From positions 89,158,001 through 89,222,000 of the forward strand of contig NC_045696.1 of assembly GCF_009834535.1 (NCBI RefSeq): a DNA stretch of 64,000 nt, read 5' to 3'. The translations under genes were made by a program, and so were the position numbers. The notes below the pieces were generated by a model. That model was not told where the DNA came from, did no database searches, and was given only the letters and a program-made list of their open reading frames with translations. Origin of the DNA: Camelus ferus. Its lineage: Eukaryota. Positions within the stretch are counted from its first letter, which is position 1. The number at the start of each line of letters is the position of its first letter. This document shows, in pieces, positions 23,181 to 37,500 of the stretch.

Positions 23181-24489
23181 AAAAGGCATCAGGAGTTAAG
23201 AGTCCCTGTACTACATTATTTAGACCTCTTGAAAAATTATTGTGAGCTACAATGTTATGCCATTGGCCTATACTGAAGATCTCCTTTTGAAAAGCCCTAC
23301 GGAACGTATTTAGTAAAGATGGTTGAATATGTTATTCTTGACATTATAGCATCTTCCTTATGAAAACTCACAGGAGAAGCTTCTCCTAGATCTCAGTACA
23401 AGGAAGATTTGTGACTCTCTCAAGCGGCTGCTCTGATTTTGACTTACAAACACTAAATCCTTTAACTCATCTGCTTTTTGTTTGTATTTCCTACTACAAA
23501 GCTCAGAAGCAAGGTATGGCCTTATTTTTCCAACTTTGTTTTTCCCCTTCGCCTTGGTTTCTTCGTTTACTTTTTTGGGGTCCTGTTTGGTGTGACCTTC
23601 TTATAAATTACCTCAAATCTCTTTTGGTGTAAATTACAGAAGGCTGGCTGGCTGGCTGGGATAATTGATGTATTTGTAGGTTTTGTTTTTTTTTTTAACC
23701 TTTAAGTTCTATCTTCTGGAGTCCTGTAAAACAAGATTAATTCCATTTCTACAAGTTGGCCTTCAATATTTAATGACAGTTATTTTCCCTTGGCTATCTC
23801 TTCTTCAGACTAAAAGTTAGAAAATAAAAGCCTTTATATCAGACTCAGTTCCATCATACCTGGGGTGGGTTTCAGTGTCCACTGGGCCAGTGCCTTTGCC
23901 CACATTGCTAGACTTGCCTCCTCTACCTGCCTCACCTTTTATTCCCCCAGCAACCTGGGCCCTCCTCTACTGCTGCAACCCTGATGTCCACTCTCCAGGA
24001 CCCACTTCCAAGGCCACTGCTTCAACCTGTCCTCACCCACTGCTTCTCCATCTATGAAGTCTTGAGGTCCAGGATCCCAATCTCCTCCTACTCCAATGGC
24101 CCATCTCCCTAGCACTTCTTACCTTTCTCCCACTACACCTGCTCCTTGACATCAAGATATCCACACTCTCAGCCCTTCCCATTTTATTTTGTCTGCCATT
24201 CTTCATCCTCCTTTGCTGCCCAAATCCCATTTCTGTTTTCCTACTCAAACTTTCACCCACAGTGTGTCATCTCACCAAAACCAGACATTAAGACCAGCTG
24301 ACAGTTTGGGGATTTTTAAGTAAAGGTCATTTCTGTTTTTCATCAAAAATATTTCTATTCTTAATTCAAATCATTAATGTTCATGATTAACTGGAAAAGT
24401 TTTTGGATTTCTACAAGTTTATCTGAATTTCTTACCAAGAACCCAGCATCAACCAATGTATGTGTGCTGGCACTTGAAATACATGTTTA

Positions 24490-24670
24490 TGTCCCAGGCA
24501 CAGTGTGAAGTGTTTCTGTACATTACCTTACGATGCAGTACAGCCATCTCTTCCCACTTGACAGATGAGAAAACAGGCTTAGAGAAGTTCAGTAACTCGC
24601 TGTGGTCACATAACTAGTAAATCTAGAGCCCAGAGAGTCACCCAGGCAGTCCAACTCTAAACCACCATGT
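24490..24670 (-). mobile_element. MIR
   Basis: MIR core: acagatgagaaaacaggcttagagaagttcagtaactcgc...ggtcaca. Confidence 0.75.
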
Positions 24671-25095
24671 TATTCTGTATCTATTGTGAGGTCTTAACAA
24701 TCACATTCCACCACAAGCGTATAAACAGAATCTTCATGTAGGAAGCTATTTTTGTCCTTGCTTTGATATTAGCAGGCACTGGGTGTTCAGTTGTAACATA
24801 AGGCCTCTATGATTCTCATTTGATGCTGAGCATGCAAAAATCTCTTTTTTTTAAATACTGGAAAAGATTTACCAGCTGTTTTAAAGCAATGTTTTCCCAT
24901 TTTTAAAGTTAATAAAGCCAGACCAAAGAGGAGGCACACTTGGCGCTGAAGGAACCAGCTGAATGAAATGGGAAAAAATGGCATCTGAGTTGGTTTTGTT
25001 GACCATTTCAGATTTTATCCATGAACCATTTCTGCATTCCCACAAATAACTGTTGAGTCACTAAGATTTCCCGCCCAGTTTCTCTTGTATTTTTA

Positions 25096-25244
25096 AAAAA
25101 TTTATTTATTTATTTATTTTAATTTTTAGGGGGAGGTAATCAGGGTTTACTTATTTATTTATTTTTAGAGGAGGTACTGGGGATTGAACCCAGGAACTTG
25201 TGTATGCTAAACATGTGCTCTACCACGCAAGCTATATCCTCCCC
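25096..25244 (-). mobile_element. Camelid tRNA-derived SINE (Vic-1-like)
   Basis: Reverse complement of the same consensus, with a TSD-like ttctc(t/c)tgtattttta on both sides. Confidence 0.85.
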
Positions 25245-25419
25245 TTCTCCTGTATTTTTAATAATACTTCCTTTCAACAGCAAATAACAAAACAATAGCT
25301 ACCTTATTCGCTTGTGATTAAAAAAGTGATGCTATATGATGCCATGAGGCTACATGATGCCATGAGGCTACAGCTACAGCTCTAACTATGCGATATTCTG
25401 TGGAGTTAAGTTAATAGCA

Positions 25420-25680
25420 TGCTGAGAAGTTTAACGGTTGAGAGTCCCAGCTCTGGAGTCAGACGGGCTGGATCTGCCCCCTGGATCATCCACGTATCAA
25501 TCACGTGACTTGGGACACACCACTTGACCTCTCTGGGCTACACTTTCCTCTTCTGTAAAATGGGACTAATAATCCTTAGCTCCTCCTGTTATGAATTTTA
25601 AATGTGATAATACATGTAAAATGCCTAGCACAGTGCTTGGCGTAAGCATTCAGTGAATTACAGTTATTACTGTGATAATC
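25420..25680 (+). mobile_element. MIR
   Basis: ctctggagtcagac...tttcctcttctgtaaaatggg...cctagcacagtgcttggc. Confidence 0.8.
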
Positions 25681-25953
25681 ATCAGATAGCAAATGAAAAG
25701 TGTCACCCTCCCCCCTAGGCAACTGCTGAGATTCTATCAAAAGTGGTGCACATGCTTCTATTTTATTCTTTGCAAAACAGGCTAAAATGTAAATTGTTAC
25801 CAAACTTTAAATCAGAGCATGCTAGAAATAATGATATTTAACTTATCAAAGTGAACTACCAGAATGCAAACATAGTACTATAAACTTCAGGACTTAACTT
25901 AAGAAATGATTAATTATAGACAGATTACAGATGTTTATTAAAATAAAATTAAG

Positions 25954-28900
25954 CATCCACAAAAAGCTTAGGCACACTCCAGAGTAGGATCCAGAACCTA
26001 TGGAAACTCTAACAGTCCTCAGGAAACACTGGAAACCCCGGAAGAAAAGGCAGAGCCTGTGGAAGATTTGGCAGGTGTCAGAGAGCTCCTGCAAACACCA
26101 AAAGAAATAGGAAAAAATAAATGGAGATAATGTCAACTGAAAACTTAGGAGCACACCAAAGCACAAACCAGACCCAGCAAACACCCTAAGAATCCTCACG
26201 GGAGTGCTGAGGACACCCAAATGTAACCAGAACTAATGAAAATCCTGGCTGCTCTCACAGAGATTCTGTAAACACCAGAAGAACCAGAGGAAACAACACA
26301 TGATGATAATGTTCACAGAAAGCTTAGGAACATTTGAAAGCAGAATCCAGAACCAGCAGAAAATCTAATAGGCATCGGGAGGCTGCTGAGAACACCTAAA
26401 GTAAAACCAGAACCCTGGAAGACCTGGCAGATACCCGAGAGTTCCTGCAAACACCAAAAGGACCGGAGGAATAAATAAATGGTGATGATATTCACAAAAC
26501 GCATAGGAACACTCCGAGCGCAAAGGAGAACCAGAAGAAAATCTAAGAATACTCAGGAGACTGCTGGGAACAGCAGAGGGAAACGCAGACTCCATGGAAG
26601 AATATCTGACAGGCATCAAAGAGCTTACACAAACACCAAAGGGGCAAAACAAGCAGAGAGTGGAAGCAACAAGGACTCCCTGTCCCCCCAGTGGAAATGT
26701 AGAAAAGGTGAAAGCCTCATAGGTTTAAAAGAAAGATAGTTTAGGATGCGTAAAGATCGGGCAGGACCAGTGGGAGACCCAACAGGAACCAAGGGCCCTA
26801 GTGAAAACTCCACAGCAAATTGTGGACCAGAACACAAGACAGTAAGAAACTCAGGACAGTTCCCAGGGAGAAATGTGCATCAGCTGAACTCCTGACAACA
26901 ATCAAGAGACTTCTGAGGACTTCGGTAGAAAAGACTGAGTCCACGGAAAACCCAACAGGCACCAACAGACAGAACTAAAGAAAAGGGAAATCAAAGTAGA
27001 AGACTTGGTTTCCTACAATTTGCAGAACTGTAATACAATGCAACTCTTCTCACTGACCTCAGGACAACTGCAGAGCAGATCTGTGAATCGACAGAAAACC
27101 CTGGAGGCATGAAGAAACTTGGGAAAATGTCTAAGGTACATCCAGCAGAAGATCTGGCAGACATTACGATAGTGAAGGCAGCTCTGAATTCTAAAAACTT
27201 GTTCACAGGAAACCCTTAGTAAGGATTCAGATATATCAGAGAAATTACAAGAAAACTAACCTAAAAGAAATACTACTCAAAAAAACCAAGTCATAGAAAA
27301 AAATGTTAGAACATATACAGAGTGTACATTTTTTTTTTATCAAAAGACAATGAAGAAGACCATACAAAACTTTTTTTAAAACATCAAGAGAAAGCCTGGA
27401 GCCAGAAGTTACCAGTACTATATTGTACATTAGGAACCAAGATGTACTATATTGAAACCATCAAGAAAAAAGAAAAATGCAGTTGAAGACTTCTTGGAAT
27501 GCAGACTCTTCTGGGAGAATCCAAGCAGAAGACATGATGTTTGGAAGCTGTCAACAGTGGATTTGAAGAAATGTTTGATTCAGTGATGGACCCAGAGATC
27601 TCAGTCAAGAGAACTCCTCTTGTAAGCCTTGTGGATATGAATCCAAAATAAATGCCTCTGAAATTGAAGACATGTGGCCAAAGAGCACGCAAGCTAGAGT
27701 TAGTCAAAGAACAAGATCTAACCTAAAAAAGATTTTTAAATATCTGAACATTTGCCTACTCAAAAAGGCAATGTGCGAAGAGAGATATGTGTAAAGAAAT
27801 ATGAGTTTAATTTTAAAGAAAAGCTGAGTCAGGGAATAACCCTACATCCCAGATGCAGATATAGTACTGCTACAGAACTTGAGTCTCAGTTGCTTACATC
27901 AACAGAAAAGATTCAAATAAAGGTGAAAAGAATCCTGTGAAGAGCTTCCAAGAGAAATACTCAGAAGACGGAGCTATGAAGCAGAAGACAGACTGTAACA
28001 CTGAGGGGAGAAGTAAAGCTGGTATAAAGCTACAGGAATCTGATAGCTTGGTTAGTTCATCAGGGGTTATGCTCATGTAGAAAGGTGACAAACAGTGAAA
28101 AATCTGCAAGAGGAAAGTTAAATCTACAAACGACGAGAAGATACTTTTAGGACCCAGGAAGATAATGAAAATTAATTTTGACCTGGTAAAATCTTTGGTC
28201 AATACAGAAGAGAAAATTCATACAAACTAAAACAAAACAGAAGCAAATCTGGAAGATGCTAATCTTTTGTTTAATGAAATAAATGTTGCCAACAAAGAGG
28301 CAGAAGATCAAACTGTTGACAGTTCCTCAGGTAAAATCTTGAATAATGCAGGGCGGATTCTTCAACATCAACTCAAAGCAGAATAAAAGAAAAGTTAGAG
28401 GTATCTGTTCAACCCAGTAGTCAGAGATGCTACATACAGAGGAAGTTGAAGAAGAGCCCATGTAGAAAATCCGTAAGAATGTGAAAAAAAAAAAAAATAC
28501 AGCAATCAATGGTGAATCAATTTATCTTTTAGGCCTGGAGGCTCAATACGGTCTTCCCTACAAAGACAGAAGGATGTGATCTTTAATCTAGTACAACAAA
28601 TAGAATGTCTGTGAAAAAGAATGAGAAAAGATATGACCGACACACAGGAAACCACAAAGGTGCCTGTGGAAAAGTCTAGATGCACAAAGACATAGCAGTC
28701 AATGGAGAAATAATGTGCTTCAGGTTTGGAAGCCCAAATAAGGTCAGTGCCACTACTAAGATGCAAGGGCCTAATTCTTTGCTCTTATAAACAGAGCAGA
28801 GAACACATCTTTAGGCAAAAATAGGGAGAAAAATGCTGCCGATCTGTCCAGAGAAAATCTAGGTGAGGAAGCAGTAGTCAAAGAGGTAAGTCAAGATTTA

Positions 28901-29421
28901 TTGTGTTTGAAATCTAGAAAAATTAAAGTATTTGCTAGAGAGATGCAAAGATTTGATCTTTGCCCAGTGTGACAGAGGAAATTCTATAGAGAAGAGCGAA
29001 GAGAAATATGTTTACAGTCATTTAGTGCATATAAAAAGGAGAAACCACCTGTTTCAAAACTGGAAACCCATAGAAGCCAGGTGCAAATAGAATAAAAAGG
29101 AAACACTTTGGAAAATACTGTTTTACCAAAAATTTTGTGCAAAAAGCTAAGGCATAACCGGAGTAATACTAAATCACAGCAAAGAGTAACCTGGAGTTCT
29201 AAGAGATGTGTTTTGGAGAAAACATCTGCTAAAAATCCAAAGCAGGAAAAGAACAATACACAAAGAAAGAAAGAACTAGATGATAGCAAGACAATGAAGG
29301 AGCTTAGCTAGGAGTGGGGAAGAGTGACCATCTCTAGTGTGATGGCTAGCCTAAATATCTTCCATAGAATAACTTTTGCCATAAAATTAAAAGTGAATTC
29401 TGTAAGTAAAAGAAAATAAAT
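25954..29421 (+). pseudogene. MKI67: Processed, 5'-truncated MKI67 (Ki-67) retropseudogene with many stops and frameshifts
   Basis: Ki-67 motif ETPEEKAEPVEDLAGVRELLQTPKE at 26032-26106 and repeats of it. LR-tail-like CLKSRKIK at ~28904. C-terminal KSQQRVTWSSKRC...AKNPK at 29171-29240. A-rich tail at 29408-29421. TSD AAATAAAATTA(A/G)G at 25941-25953 and 29422-29434. Confidence 0.85.
25955..26660 (+). repeat. Four ~179-bp coding-type tandem repeats, each made of three 60-bp subunits, inside the MKI67 retrocopy
   Basis: Units begin at ~25955, 26132, 26311 and 26490 and share anchors such as AAGCTTAGG, CTGCTGAG and CTGCAAACACCAAAAG. Confidence 0.9.
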
Positions 29422-30945
29422 AAATAAAATTAGGTTCTATATGTATTTAAGTATAATCAAAGTGTTGGTTTTATTTGACATTTGATTATTTTACAGGCAA
29501 AATTTGAAAAAAAGAATTAAGACATCCTTTCCATCCTTATGGAAGAAAGGATGTCTTAATTTCTTGCAATTAGCTGGTTGATTTATTCTTTGGTTGAGAA
29601 AATACCTTCCCTTAGCCTATCACTTATTAGCCTTTTCATCAATGGATGAAAGGTGAACCAAAAAGCAATTCTAAACCAGTGAGGTCAGATGTAAACTTGC
29701 CAAATATTCTAATATTGATTGGTTGTCTGCAGCTTATACTTTTGGAGAGATGGTTAATGCTGGATTGTTCAAAATAAAGCAACTCATCATTTTTTCTCTC
29801 AATCTGGAAACCCAAATTAATTATGATTCTTGAAATTTTTACAAAAGTCAGTGCAGAATATTGTACAAATCTGAACACTATATTCATGTTTATAGCATAT
29901 CAATTTCAGCTCTGAATTGTTTCCCTTATTAATTCCACTTGAGAGAAACTATATACATAAAGTACAACATTAAGATACTTACCATATTGCCTTTTAAACA
30001 TGTTGAGGCCATTTCCTTATATTCCCTTTGGCCTTTACAGCTGAATCTGGTTTTCCTTATATAATACATGCCCTTTGGCATACTTGCCAATGCCATTTTC
30101 TATGGTTGAAGCACACTCACATTTGCAAAATGTGCCAATTAATGGCCTCTTAAAACTTAAAACTATCATTATAACCCAAGAAGACATTTTCCTCTTGGTT
30201 AGGATATTGAACAGCCAATACAAATTGCTTTTAAGCAACTGGTAATTATACACACACGTGATTTAGAAAATCAGTTACATTTTTCTCTCATTCCAGATGG
30301 ATTCTTACCATATCCAGGACCATCATTTCCCTACTCAATGAGAAGTCAATGAAAATGACAATGTTTGAAATATTTTAGTATGTGAGTTAGTTTAATAACT
30401 AAAAACCAGGAGGAAAAGTTAGTACTGGAGAACTTGGCACTCCCAGGTGGCTTTGGTTAAGATATGTATGTACGTAGCAGTCTTGCAAATAATATCAGGC
30501 ACAGACTATGCACCTATATAAGTCTATATCTATGTAGATACATCTCTGTTCTACACTATGTATAGAAGAATATTAAAAATGAGTAAAATGAGCAGCACAT
30601 CATGAATTACTTTCAAGTGAAAGTTTCTACATTTCTATTTTCCACTAGTTCTGTCTATGTAATAAATAACTTCCAGATAAAATCTACAAAAACTGATCAC
30701 CCAGATAATGCCCTTAGAGCTTTAAAAATGTTTCTATCCAGTTCTTCTATCATTGTGAACACATGGGTTCTGTATTAACATGGTATATTAAATACGTATG
30801 TGTATTACCATGAGATATGTTCATTTATCACTAATAAAAATAGCTGTTAAGGACTTTTCCCTCACAACATTATGCCTGAACAGAACTGTGCTTGGTAAAT
30901 CAATGAATTACAAGAAAAAAACCAAAGCAGAGTCACACTCATGTT

Positions 30946-32477
30946 TTTATTGAACTGGGTGACATCAATAAAAGCTTGTGTGATGTGCAGGGAAAAAAAG
31001 TGTAAAACTTGTAATTTTAAAATTAAGTAGAATCTCATTGCACTATTGGTGTCACATTATAGACATTCTGAATTTTATGGAGAGAAATGTTCCACAGATG
31101 GTACAAGAAAAACATCTTGATTCATTTTATAAGTGTATTTTCATAAGACTTTGTTGTAAAGTTCAAGATGCTAGTAGTAACAACATAGAAGACAGACTTT
31201 ATATATTGGTACTTGGATATTTATGTTGATGTTTCAGATATGCGTGAATTTTTTTAAGTGTCTAAAATAGTGTACCCTCAAAGGATAAATCATTTAAAGG
31301 AGTATGAAAACTTCCCAGTTTGTTTGAATGGTGAGTGGTATTGACAGCCACATGTAACTAAAATTTACAGTGTTTGAGTAACATTAATATATACAGTCAT
31401 TCAATATAATGTGATTTCATTAAATCCTATACCATTCTCAATAAAAGTTGATGCAGTCTCAACTCCTGATGTTTTTGCCAATTCACAGCTTTAAATTTCT
31501 TTTAAATGTCAGACACACATTTCATATTTTAATACACTACCATATAGTCACACGTCTGATACAGTTTGCACAGAGAAAGATTTTAATGCTTTTCTATGTT
31601 TTAATGCACTTCAAATGATTCTCTTTAATGACAGGGTCATTCTCTTTTAAAAGTTTAGAGTAAACCATTTTCTTCTATTGCAATTCAGACATCTTCAGAT
31701 TCCTTAGAACTGTCAGACTTTTTCAATCAGCTTTAAAAATTTTAATCAAATCATTTTCTTCTAATATCATTCAGATATTTTAAGATTTCTCAGAATTGTC
31801 AGATTTTTTCAATCATAAAAATAACTTTTCTAGATCCAGGTGTGAGATCCACATGTGTAATTTTTCTCAATGTAGTACCCATCCTTCCCCAAGCAGAGAA
31901 AACTTTTTTTTCCTTCTTTTCCTTTCTTGATAATCACAAACTGTAATAATTATACACAGTGTGTATATTGTACATAGACAATATGCATATGTACATTATA
32001 CATAATGCATTTTAATATATTATTTCATATTACCATTTGCTTAAAGGACATTTAATAGAATGGTAGAACTGATACAATGACACTTTTTTTTCTTAAGATA
32101 GGTTGACTGAATCCTTCTGTAGTACATTACTGCACAATTATGCTTTAAACAAAAGTTACAAGTCACAACAAATTCTTACGTTTTCTATCATGTGAAATGT
32201 ATTCCAAATGAAAAATGGAGGGGAAAGGCATGACATCATGCTTCATGGTATGGCTTACATGTAGCAATCATTTTTACATGAAACTATGACCTAGACTACA
32301 TCCATAATGTATAGTTAATATAAAAAGTTATATATTATGCCACAGTACTAAAAATAAAGTATATTCTTCTCAAATAGTGAAAATAAGGTATCCTTCATGT
32401 TTTCAATGTCACATTTTTTCTCATTTGACCATGCCTCTTTTTCCCGCCGTAAATGAAATAATGTCCAACATTTTATT
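30946..32477 (-). terminator. Candidate alternative C3orf80 polyA signals
   Basis: Minus-strand AATAAA at 32472-32477, ATTAAA at 31582-31587 and AATAAA at 30946-30951. The last is followed by a U-rich element. All lie within an AU-rich, repeat-free 3' region. Confidence 0.5.
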
Positions 32478-32849
32478 AAACAATAATGAGAGTGTAGATA
32501 TTTCTGGGCCACTAAGGCCTAAAACAGGTGCTAAGATGATGATCTTGTCATTAAATGCAGAAACAGCCTCCAGATGCGCTCAATACATGATAAAAATATA
32601 AAAATAAAAGACAAATAAGTATCTTCTCAGTTATTGAAAAATCAAAAGTTCAACGGTACCTTGAGTATGATCTCAGATATGCGTAACTGCTGTATCCTGA
32701 ATAGGTACAGCAACTAACCGGATCTCACGGGCATCCCTCACCAAACTGTGAGCCATCAGCCATGACTATGCTTTGCCAGAAAGACCGTGCTAGAGTTCTC
32801 CGCAAGGGAGGGATTCGATCACACCTAAGTACTGCTCTCTCCCAGACTC

Positions 32850-34560
<1,711 letters not shown>

Positions 34561-37500
34561 TCAGTTTTAAGTGATTGGATTTCCCCGGGAATGTTATTTA
34601 AATTGACTTGCGACTGGGATTCGCTTACCATCCTTCTTGTGATCTTTCTGATTAAAAATGGATGATGGTCATTAATGGCTAGCACAGCCCCGCAGCCGCC
34701 CTAGAGCTTGCTGGGTGGGGTGGGGGAGAGATGCCGGATGGTACAGATCCAGGGGGCTGGGAATCCGGTACCCCTCAGGAGACCTCCAGAACAGAGAATT
34801 CTCCGGAGAGGCTAAGGTCATGGCACCACGGAAGTATTCACAGAGGGGCAGGGGGGTACTCTTCCACGGTAACCCGAGTTGACGAAGGAGAGGAGAAGGG
34901 GTGCATATTTCCCCAGGGCATCCGACAAGCCCCAGTGTACCCAAGGGACAGAGCAGGGATTTGGATTTGAGGTAGGAGGCCTGTCCTCCAGCGTAAATAA
35001 CACATCTGTGAAATGGCAAACGAGAGTTGTAAGTGATTGGCAACGTTCCTAAGCATTGATCTGCGTCTAAAGGGTCTTTTTCAAGGTTATTCTTGTTTGC
35101 CAAGTTTGCCTTCAAGGGAGCCTATGCTCTCATTTAGCACATGGGGTAGAGCAGGCAGCACTCCCTGGGGAAGCCCCTTAGCGCACGCTGGGAGGGATGG
35201 CAGTTACCGCGGTCCCTGACACAGACATGTCTGCTGGGCGGTGGCCTTCAGCGGCTCATTAGAGCGACACCATGAAGGAGCCAGGAGCTTGTGCTTTTAT
35301 TCAGGCAGACTGGAACAATCATCTTTTAATCCCCTCACCCCTTAAACACTAGGTCCCCTGTAGAGAATCCAGACGGGGAAATTCCATAGTCATTGAGAGA
35401 AAAAAGTAAAAGCAAGGGGAAAACAGAACACAAAACTCAACTGTAGATCAGGTAAAAGCAAAGATTTCTCTCGGAGTAAGTCACACTGTATCTCCCTAAT
35501 AGCCTTATGGAACAAGGCTGGAGTGTGGGTTTGATTTAGACTGGTCAGTGTTCCTCCTAAATGAAAACATTTTAAAATATCTACTGCTGGGAACACCTTA
35601 CTTTGCCTTGCACTCCAAAACAATCCTTTCTCCTCCTGGAGAAGCTCCTAAGTGTCACTAACACCAAGTACTTCATGCGAAGCTTGGCTGAGCACACGTC
35701 CTTCTTTCTAAGCTCTCCTAAAGCCGAAATATTTCTCTGTACCGCCATCTGTTTCTCTGCTGGGAGGCCTAAAACCTATTCAGTAAAGACTAATTGACAA
35801 GGGGTTTCAAATTGTAGAAAGAGGGTGGAAATGATTCTTTTTAGGACAATGAAAATCATTATCCTTTCATTCACCCATTCTTTGGCCAAATTTACACCGC
35901 ACGTTTTTCTATATTCTAGGAACTCTGCTAGGTGCTCGCCATTATATAGAAATAGATGATTCCTCCCCAGGGTGGAATAAACCCAGGTCTGCAGGCCTAG
36001 CTGCTTCTAAATGGAGTAAAGGAGACATTCCACAGAGGGAAACAAATGACAGTTTCCTCTCTGATGGTGACTTGTTCTCATTTTCCTAGAGGAAAAATAG
36101 TTAATGAGTTTACAGCAATCTCAAGGATGAAGGCAGTTCATAGCTTGAGATGGGCGTTAGAGTACGAAGTCGATAAAAATGTGAAGACCTCTTTGGGTTC
36201 TTATCTGATCTGCTAGGATTTCTGCTGGCCATGGGAGCAATGGCAAAAGTAAAGGGGAAGTTGTCTGGTTGATGATGCATAAGAGAAACTGTCCTGCTTA
36301 TTGTTATTTTGAAATTAGTTAACAAACAGCATTTAATCTGTTTAATTTCTGTCTGCCTTCAAGGGAATTAGAATTTGTTTGCAGGATATCAGGACACAGT
36401 AGAAAAACAATATAGATCTTACATAAAATAAAACATTGGCAGAGTTACATAAAAAACAAAGAAAAGGATGGGGTCTGCAAAATGCATATGGAATGGATTT
36501 TATTTGATTTTTTTCTTTCCAAATTGATAGTCCCAAAGCATCATCCATTAAAGACCCTCTACAGAAACTGGCGCCTCTTTGTTTCTCCTCTGATCTCTCA
36601 GTCTCACTTAATTCATTTTTATTTGCAGTGTAATTTATTGTGTACAACCTTTTGAAGGAAAGAAAAGAAACCCTATAGCTTTAAAAGCCCCAGAAAAGAC
36701 ATGATCTTCATTACTCAGCACCCTTATTCTTTGTATTTGTTTAACACACAAATAAATGGGTTAGACTTAGCTCTCAGAAAGTCATAAATTCAAGCCACTT
36801 AGGGAGGAAGATGGAATTTAATTATATGTTCCATAGAATAATTGAAAGATAAAGGAAGATCACAATGTAAAAATTAAAAAGAAACCTTATTTTGTTGAAA
36901 ATCAGCACCAAATTGTGTGTAAGTCAGTGTGTGCAAGAGAAAAAAAAAAAAAACAGATGGAAGAGGGACAAGGACTGACTTTCATCCAAAAAGCATGGTC
37001 TCTAGGAGTACAGCTTGATTAAAAAAAAAAATTAAGAACATTAACTGCTTTATCTTGCTGAAGTGCTTGGATAATATTTTTTGAAAATTTTACCTTCCTC
37101 GTTTATTTACATTCATTTGAATGAATGCCAAATTAGCCATACTTTTCAACTTTTTAGAACAGAAGAAAGTAAGCAGAACACCACAAAACTGGTTGCTGTT
37201 TCACCTGTGCTTCTGGGAGCTGTCCTGATGGCTTGAGAAAGACTGGGCGGCCCCAACGTTCAACTTTCTGTTCTGTCACATGATACCCGGTCCAGAAGGG
37301 AACGCCTCCCTGATGTCTGCTGACTGTGAGTTCTTACCTTTAAACCTGGGAAGCAATAGTTCTGCCCTTTTCACGTCCCTTCTTCAAAACGTCTAAAAGT
37401 GGGCGGTTGGGACCTTGCAAACCATCCAGTCTCTAAGAACCCCCTTTTCGGGGTGTACCGCATTTTTCCTTACTACTAACTCGCTATTAAAGTTGATTTA

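Follow-up and report, generated by a model that had tools for sequence, protein, structure and literature searches.

Ki-67 is among the most widely used markers of proliferation, and its repeat region is the least understood part of the protein. The size and number of the repeats vary greatly among vertebrates and, in the passages of PMC8354752 that deal with the repeat region, this variable configuration is described as an unanswered enigma. According to the same passages, the repeats of chicken Ki-67 are ~60 amino acids (aa) long, about half of the human length, and chmadrin is the rat-kangaroo relative of Ki-67; the mammalian repeats are treated there as being of similar size, and neither a xenarthran or afrotherian layout nor a retrocopy is mentioned in the passages concerned. 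A human MKI67 pseudogene has received a name, MKI67P1, which we know here as a gene symbol only (PMC7277826). We describe a retrocopy of MKI67, with repeat units of 60 aa comparable in length to those of chicken, in a 64,000-nucleotide stretch of the Camelus ferus genome (NCBI RefSeq assembly GCF_009834535.1, contig NC_045696.1, positions 89,158,001 to 89,222,000), referred to below as the window. Literature searches on Ki-67 repeat evolution, MKI67P1, chmadrin and marsupials, and Afrotheria and Xenarthra (subscription journals being outside their coverage) returned no publication in which this retrocopy, or the atlantogenatan layout which it resembles, is described.

The element occupies positions 25952-29421 (+) of the window and is a 5′-truncated processed pseudogene of MKI67 with an ancestral type of architecture. 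Its body was delimited by frameshift-aware collinearity with armadillo, sloth and manatee Ki-67, and the flanks on either side (23500-25954 and 29421-31500) show only null-level similarity to Ki-67 in the same type of alignment. It is bracketed by an exact 11-mer, AAATAAAATTA, which forms a target-site duplication with a left copy at 25941-25951 (+) and a right copy at 29422-29432 (+) enclosing an insert of 3.47 kb. This 11-mer occurs three times in the 64-kb window against 0.17 expected, a number reached in 0 of 100 shuffles, and two of the three copies are those at the ends of the retrocopy. The 3′ part of the element matches the host gene at the DNA level and in the same order: 27831-27974 corresponds to the start of MKI67 exon 14 (C11:4212844-4213003), 29236-29299 to exon 15 (C11:4215134-4215201) and 29375-29409 to the 3′ untranslated region (3′UTR; C11:4215275-4215309, 88.6% identity over 35 bp). 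The equivalents of exons 13 and 14 and of exons 14 and 15 are contiguous in the window, and host introns 13 (C11:4211985-4212845, 861 bp) and 14 (~1.9 kb) have no counterpart in the retrocopy. Homology to the host 3′UTR ends at 29409, at the start of an A-rich run 20 nt past an ATTAAA signal, the tail being degraded. Measured against the armadillo protein as a guide, the copy carries at least 15 in-frame stops and at least 22 frameshifts (at least 37 disablements in total). The duplication, the missing introns, the 3′UTR and ATTAAA end and the disablements together identify the element as a processed pseudogene of MKI67. The parent gene lies on contig C11 and the retrocopy on C1. The 2.09-Gb host assembly contains the element only once, and the armadillo tail block finds no other locus there (next hit E 0.9).

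The retrocopy begins with four ~179-bp (60-aa) units, U1-U4 (25955-26668, +), which were defined by their period, by alignment of the units and by comparison with relatives (U1, 25955-26132; U2, 26133-26309; U3, 26310-26488; U4, 26489-26668; all +). Tandem Repeats Finder reports a period of 179 bp over 26060-26601, with 3.0 copies and 71% matches, and when 25900-27400 is compared with itself by blastn, three diagonals shifted by 177, 356 and 535 bp appear, with identities of 70.6, 71.6 and 69.7%; they span 25955-26643, or 3.85 copies of a 177-179-bp unit. The MAFFT majority consensus of U1-U4 has one frame that is open for 59 aa, IHKKLRNTPKHNPEPAENLRILRRLLRTPKGNAEPMEDLAGIRELLQTPKEPEEKINGD, and thus represents a 59-60-aa unit with three ~20-aa TP-containing subunits. 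These analyses bear out an initial annotation made from the letters of the window, which had recognised the four units and their tripartite consensus. It had also noted more degenerate subunits up to ~27200; these are real and form units U5-U7 (26669-27200, +), collinear with armadillo aa ~1540-1720. Its reading of a TRTPCPP segment at ~26667, however, was in the wrong frame, the frame which agrees with sloth and armadillo giving SNKDSLSPQWKCRKGESLIGLKER. Neither self-blastn nor Tandem Repeats Finder indicates a preference for a super-period of ~358/366 bp over the 177-bp offset in 25900-27400; the ~366-bp period that had been proposed as evidence against an ancestral array is therefore not seen, the three offsets being equally similar. 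Stop-free pieces of the region match the Pfam KI67R profile (PF08065) only over positions 61-112 of 112, with E-values of 2.8e-6, 1.6e-4 and 1.6e-3 (a piece at 26805-26978 scores E 1.6e-3); the scored pieces are short because frameshifts break the frame. The whole 112-position model, which includes the CKSPQ...DTPTS half, is not matched by the retrocopy.

The array is followed by a long non-repeat tail. Its first part (27201-27832, +), delimited by the armadillo and sloth alignments, derives from the 3′ part of the large exon 13 and includes LEHxQSVH and GFEEMFD blocks, both of which are missing from camel and human Ki-67. The exon-14 equivalent (27833-29235, +), identified through its DNA match to host exon 14, starts with the residues GITLHPRCRYS (corresponding to GMSLRSR...) and contains ~430 codons without counterpart in the camel or human tail. 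An exon-15-equivalent C-terminus with the original stop codon, TAG at 29305-29307, occupies 29236-29307 (+; match to host exon 15) and is followed by a short 3′UTR with the ATTAAA signal (29386-29391) and an A-rich tail remnant (29308-29421, +; match to the host 3′UTR).

To compare this layout with living proteins we wrote a local alignment that allows for frameshifts and is scored with BLOSUM62, at -6 for a gap, -12 for a frameshift and -6 for a stop (shuffle nulls 72-79); it replaced an earlier tblastn of bat and camel Ki-67 against the window that read through stops in one frame. Over 25900-29450, armadillo Ki-67 scores 919 (shuffle null 77 +/- 8), sloth 821, manatee 434, bilby 426, dromedary 235 and human 184. 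Over the tail (27201-29330) the scores are 515 for armadillo (229/451 identical), 547 for sloth (188/367 identical), 314 for manatee, 86 for bilby and 73 for dromedary; of the remaining hits that were fetched, the highest-scoring reaches 111 over the tail. The ordered alignments cover aa 1355-2226 of the armadillo protein, 1179-1992 of the sloth protein and 2322-2538, the protein end, of the manatee protein, whose C-terminus aligns to the original stop at 29305-29307 (score 117 against a null of 49 +/- 6). Each unit of the retrocopy pairs with its own xenarthran unit in the same order, as illustrated by U4, RRLLGTAEGNADS, and U5, SPQWKCRKGESLIGLK.

The closest relatives are thus xenarthran. 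The Ki-67 proteins of Dasypus novemcinctus (XP_058155457.1, P0208) and Choloepus didactylus (P0239) have ~60-aa and degenerate units in the same order as the retrocopy and share with it a long tail marked by LEHxQSVH, GFEEMFD, MSLRSR, QESD and VKSTxxEKI. Identity of aligned residues to the retrocopy is 48.5% for armadillo, 43.3% for sloth and 32% for manatee. In contrast to the copy in the window, which is 5′-truncated, intronless and interrupted by stops and frameshifts, the xenarthran proteins are intact, with FHA and PP1-binding domains. The manatee Ki-67 (Trichechus inunguis, KAM9618073.1, P0132) also has a long tail and an array of 59-60-aa units, which align with the retrocopy unit over its full length; this array differs in having been homogenised to a sequence type of its own, in which a higher order of 119 aa is superimposed, and it gives no Pfam KI67R hit. 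When a 63-aa read-through of the retrocopy (26227-26415) is compared with the armadillo and manatee proteins, it matches complete units in both, spaced ~60 aa apart. This single read-through served as query because a MAFFT profile made from the four units stacked similar 20-aa subunits; searched against 1.84 billion representatives it gave 88 hits at E <= 1e-3, of which names were looked up for 20. Marsupial proteins are more distant: chmadrin of Potorous tridactylus (P0129) and bilby Ki-67 (P0126) are similar in having TP-rich short repeats and a long tail with FKEMF and LRSR blocks, but their units are of 20-21 aa rather than 60, and the bilby tail match (86) is at noise level.

The live gene of the host is of a different type. 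Host MKI67 (G000:C11 4196261-4215309), the parent locus of the retrocopy by descent, contains 12 full-length KI67R repeats in a PF08065 search of the genome; they are spaced 324-366 bp apart (354-366 bp from start to start) and all lie in one open frame of 1828 aa on C11. The repeat exon shares 98.98% identity with dromedary Ki-67 along 1764 aa, and the last large exon agrees completely (100%) with the Bactrian camel protein; exon 14 begins at C11:4212846 after the 861-bp intron. The part of each retrocopy unit that we call 'a+b' aligns with the host gene at 67-74% DNA identity. Like other boreoeutherian Ki-67 proteins, the host protein differs from the retrocopy in its 122-aa repeats and short tail: after the array just a remnant of U2 (RVLRAPK...) is found, and MSLRSR is followed by ~150 residues in boreoeutherian Ki-67 versus ~600 in armadillo. 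Since host MKI67 is of the modern 122-aa type, the collinear block of 60-aa repeats which, according to the initial annotation, would have pointed to an ordinary copy of the host gene is not present there. Its central proposal, that the copied mRNA did not come from an MKI67 of modern type, is supported because collinearity with armadillo, sloth and manatee, and not with camel or human Ki-67, extends unit by unit through the array and along the ~700-codon tail. Host intron 14 was considered as a relic of the long tail (intronisation), but no similarity was found and the idea is unsupported. With regard to the current gene models, in the region C11 4213296-4215250 two camel Ki-67 isoform models (P0093 and P0043; loci L011 and L012) end within the exon-14 block; a further ~1.9 kb downstream, and outside both models, is the conserved last exon (...QENDNVCVKQIRTRSRRDSED...), whose frame in the camel assembly continues beyond the position of the human stop.

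The same contrast is observed on a wider scale. In a set of 120 boreoeutherian Ki-67 proteins (bats, carnivores, cetartiodactyls, perissodactyls, pangolin, primates, rodents and colugo) the strongest period is 113-122 aa in 117. The other three, from the rhinolophoid bats Hipposideros and Rhinolophus (P0037, P0091, P0101), have a top period of 81 aa. Armadillo Ki-67, on the other hand, contains six tandem matches with ~58-82-aa spacing, and bilby and platypus Ki-67 have 20-aa units. The initial annotation had called the ~122-aa layout eutherian and the older layout lost. It is instead boreoeutherian, and the ~60-aa units and long tail are still present in armadillo, sloth and manatee. A homology search with the armadillo tail gave just armadillo, sloth and the protein P0141; it missed manatee and so says little about distribution. 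Among reptiles, the Ki-67 period is 119-122 aa in the geckos Eublepharis (P0134), Paroedura (P0154) and Sphaerodactylus (P0125), in what looks like convergence on the boreoeutherian unit; Gekko and Podarcis have 20/40-aa periods.

The two unit types appear to be related. A profile of 17 units from armadillo, manatee and P0141 finds matches in dromedary and human Ki-67 at intervals of about 60 aa, and so in both halves of the 122-aa repeat, which fits a 122-aa unit composed of two 60-aa units that have diverged. Exactly one 'CKSPQ...DTPTG' double unit is present in each of the armadillo, sloth and P0141 proteins; it covers KI67R positions 7-112 in armadillo and 2-103 in P0141, nearly the whole model. 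In xenarthrans it is located just upstream of the point at which the retrocopy is truncated. For this reason the 122-aa unit probably did not arise directly from the units kept in the retrocopy. The proposed hierarchy of 20, then 60, then 122 aa fits the data.

The explanation that we consider very probable is that the locus is an L1-inserted MKI67 retrocopy which decayed neutrally and which records the gene before its remodelling in Boreoeutheria. An MKI67 mRNA would have been reverse-transcribed and inserted by the L1 machinery, leaving the 11-bp target-site duplication, a tail at the proximal ATTAAA and a 5′ truncation inside the repeat exon, and the copy would have decayed neutrally afterwards. 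At the time of copying, the ancestral gene would have encoded heterogeneous ~60-aa units, each of three 20-aa TP subunits, followed by a ~700-residue tail, a layout like that of the Ki-67 of living Xenarthra and Afrotheria. Later, before the last boreoeutherian ancestor, the live gene would have amplified a ~122-aa double unit and, in the same interval, shed the greater part of the 60-aa units downstream of it, along with ~430 tail residues. We infer that the insertion took place on the lineage leading to Boreoeutheria, near the base of the placentals, at an age of roughly 100 million years, because of parsimony, of the heavy decay and of the position of the retrocopy inside the placental clade in a tree of the tails (100/100 support against marsupials). 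As the ~60-aa units and long tail are retained in armadillo, sloth and manatee, the remodelling that the copy predates is the boreoeutherian one and not, as the initial annotation had it, an expansion common to eutherians. Since the truncation point falls just downstream of the double unit, the copy is silent on whether amplification of the 122-aa unit further upstream had already begun. The retrocopy itself is without function and is a dated snapshot of the gene before remodelling. Two sequencing runs recorded as RNA, X17 and X19, contain about half of the sampled sequence words as contigs, which speaks neither for nor against expression.

Several observations weigh against this interpretation. 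The pre-boreoeutherian date depends on parsimony over gene architectures. The set of 120 proteins does not extend to Eulipotyphla and Lagomorpha, and the atlantogenatan sample consists of one afrotherian and two named xenarthrans. Within placentals the branching order of the tail tree is unreliable, with a branch 1.83 long leading to the boreoeutherian tails and an odd composition in two rows. The best KI67R piece of the retrocopy reaches 28.3 bits against a gathering score of 32.4 bits, and only over profile positions 84-112. Finally, the differences between units show no codon-position bias (p = 0.48), and this test alone does not demonstrate that they diverged while the gene was alive.

The last point is what would be expected in dead DNA, and raises the question of whether a modern mRNA with 366-bp repeats was copied and acquired its 179-bp period after insertion, through a deletion in one unit followed by tandem duplication. 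The units are also only ~71% alike. However, stops and frameshifts are not common to different units, and each unit has an ordered counterpart in armadillo and sloth Ki-67, so that the array was not made by duplication after insertion. A ~700-codon tail of the armadillo, sloth and manatee type could not, moreover, have come from a modern transcript, and short open reading frames (ORFs) from other sources match U1 or U3 specifically, with identities of 63-72%. We regard such an origin as extremely improbable. A different objection concerns the time of the event: the retrocopy might be younger than the boreoeutherian ancestor if the old layout had persisted in the camel lineage and remodelling had occurred in parallel in several orders. 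Ki-67 arrays do change convergently, as in two geckos (121-122 aa) and rhinolophoid bats (81 aa), but a single structure of 122 aa matching the full Pfam model, together with a short tail, is found in primates, treeshrew, rodents, bats, carnivores, perissodactyls, cetartiodactyls and camelids, and the copy is heavily decayed, with 18% of unit positions deviating from the U1-U4 consensus and at least 37 disablements. This late origin with parallel remodelling is unparsimonious and, in our view, very unlikely.

The initial annotation had also considered a lost paralog as the source. In this view early placentals would have possessed a second MKI67-like gene, which gave rise to the retrocopy and has since disappeared from the camel lineage, and the 'Ki-67' of armadillo, sloth and manatee would be that paralog rather than the ortholog. 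In agreement with this, the 60-aa and 122-aa types were never seen together in one species here, as would fit a reciprocal loss, and FHA identity between Atlantogenata and Boreoeutheria is 68-73% versus 87-88% within Boreoeutheria. Against it, the xenarthran and manatee proteins are as close to those of dog and camel in the PP1 region (70-75% identity) as the human protein is (66-69%), and the same proteins carry the FHA and PP1-binding domains in the expected order. Xenarthrans also hold the one CKSPQ...DTPTG double unit that is typical of the 122-aa repeat. Since the 3′ end of the retrocopy is that of host MKI67 at the DNA level (exon 14, exon 15 and 3′UTR) and no further locus for the tail block turns up in the camel genome (the other hit being at E 0.9), a lost paralog is not needed, and we consider it very unlikely.

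If the pre-boreoeutherian origin is accepted, the locus and the armadillo, sloth and manatee proteins provide a concrete and testable history of Ki-67, which would run from 20-aa TP subunits in monotremes and marsupials, through differentiated 60-aa units with a long tail in early placentals, to the amplification of one 122-aa double unit and shortening of the tail in Boreoeutheria. They also offer natural variants for testing the role of repeat length and of the long tail in chromosome coating. No new mechanism is involved: as an object the element is an ordinary processed pseudogene, and in content it is an informative fossil of a well-known gene. That the element is common to all Boreoeutheria, and is the sole surviving record of MKI67 before its rebuilding on that side of the placental tree, is a suggestion that we make tentatively, the case for it being slightly weaker than the case against. 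If it is true, orthologous copies together with the xenarthran proto-122 double unit could date to the boreoeutherian stem the 122-aa amplification, the disappearance of the 60-aa units downstream of it and two deletions of ~400 residues each in the tail, and presence or absence of the insertion in Atlantogenata would constitute a rare-genomic-change marker for the placental root. Scans of metagenome contigs for orthologous retrocopies yielded no confirmed locus. Short ORFs of 59-75 aa from ENA/Logan (P0150, P0223-P0230, P0183, P0204) match U1, U3 or U3-U4 at 51-72% identity, and one of them, P0204, extends into the left flank of the retrocopy; judging from such matches, they are probably orthologous pseudogene copies in other mammals.

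Two further features were observed in the surroundings of the retrocopy. An 18-bp tandem repeat (25327-25372, 2.6 copies, 92% matches) is located 600 bp upstream. Downstream, an open frame of 251 aa on the opposite strand (33326-34081, -) matches the whole Pfam DUF4719 model (E 9.9e-124) and lies in a 55% GC island inside a GC-rich block at 32001-36000. We take DUF4719 to be the C3orf80 family, which fits the IFT80-C3orf80 locus given in the initial annotation.

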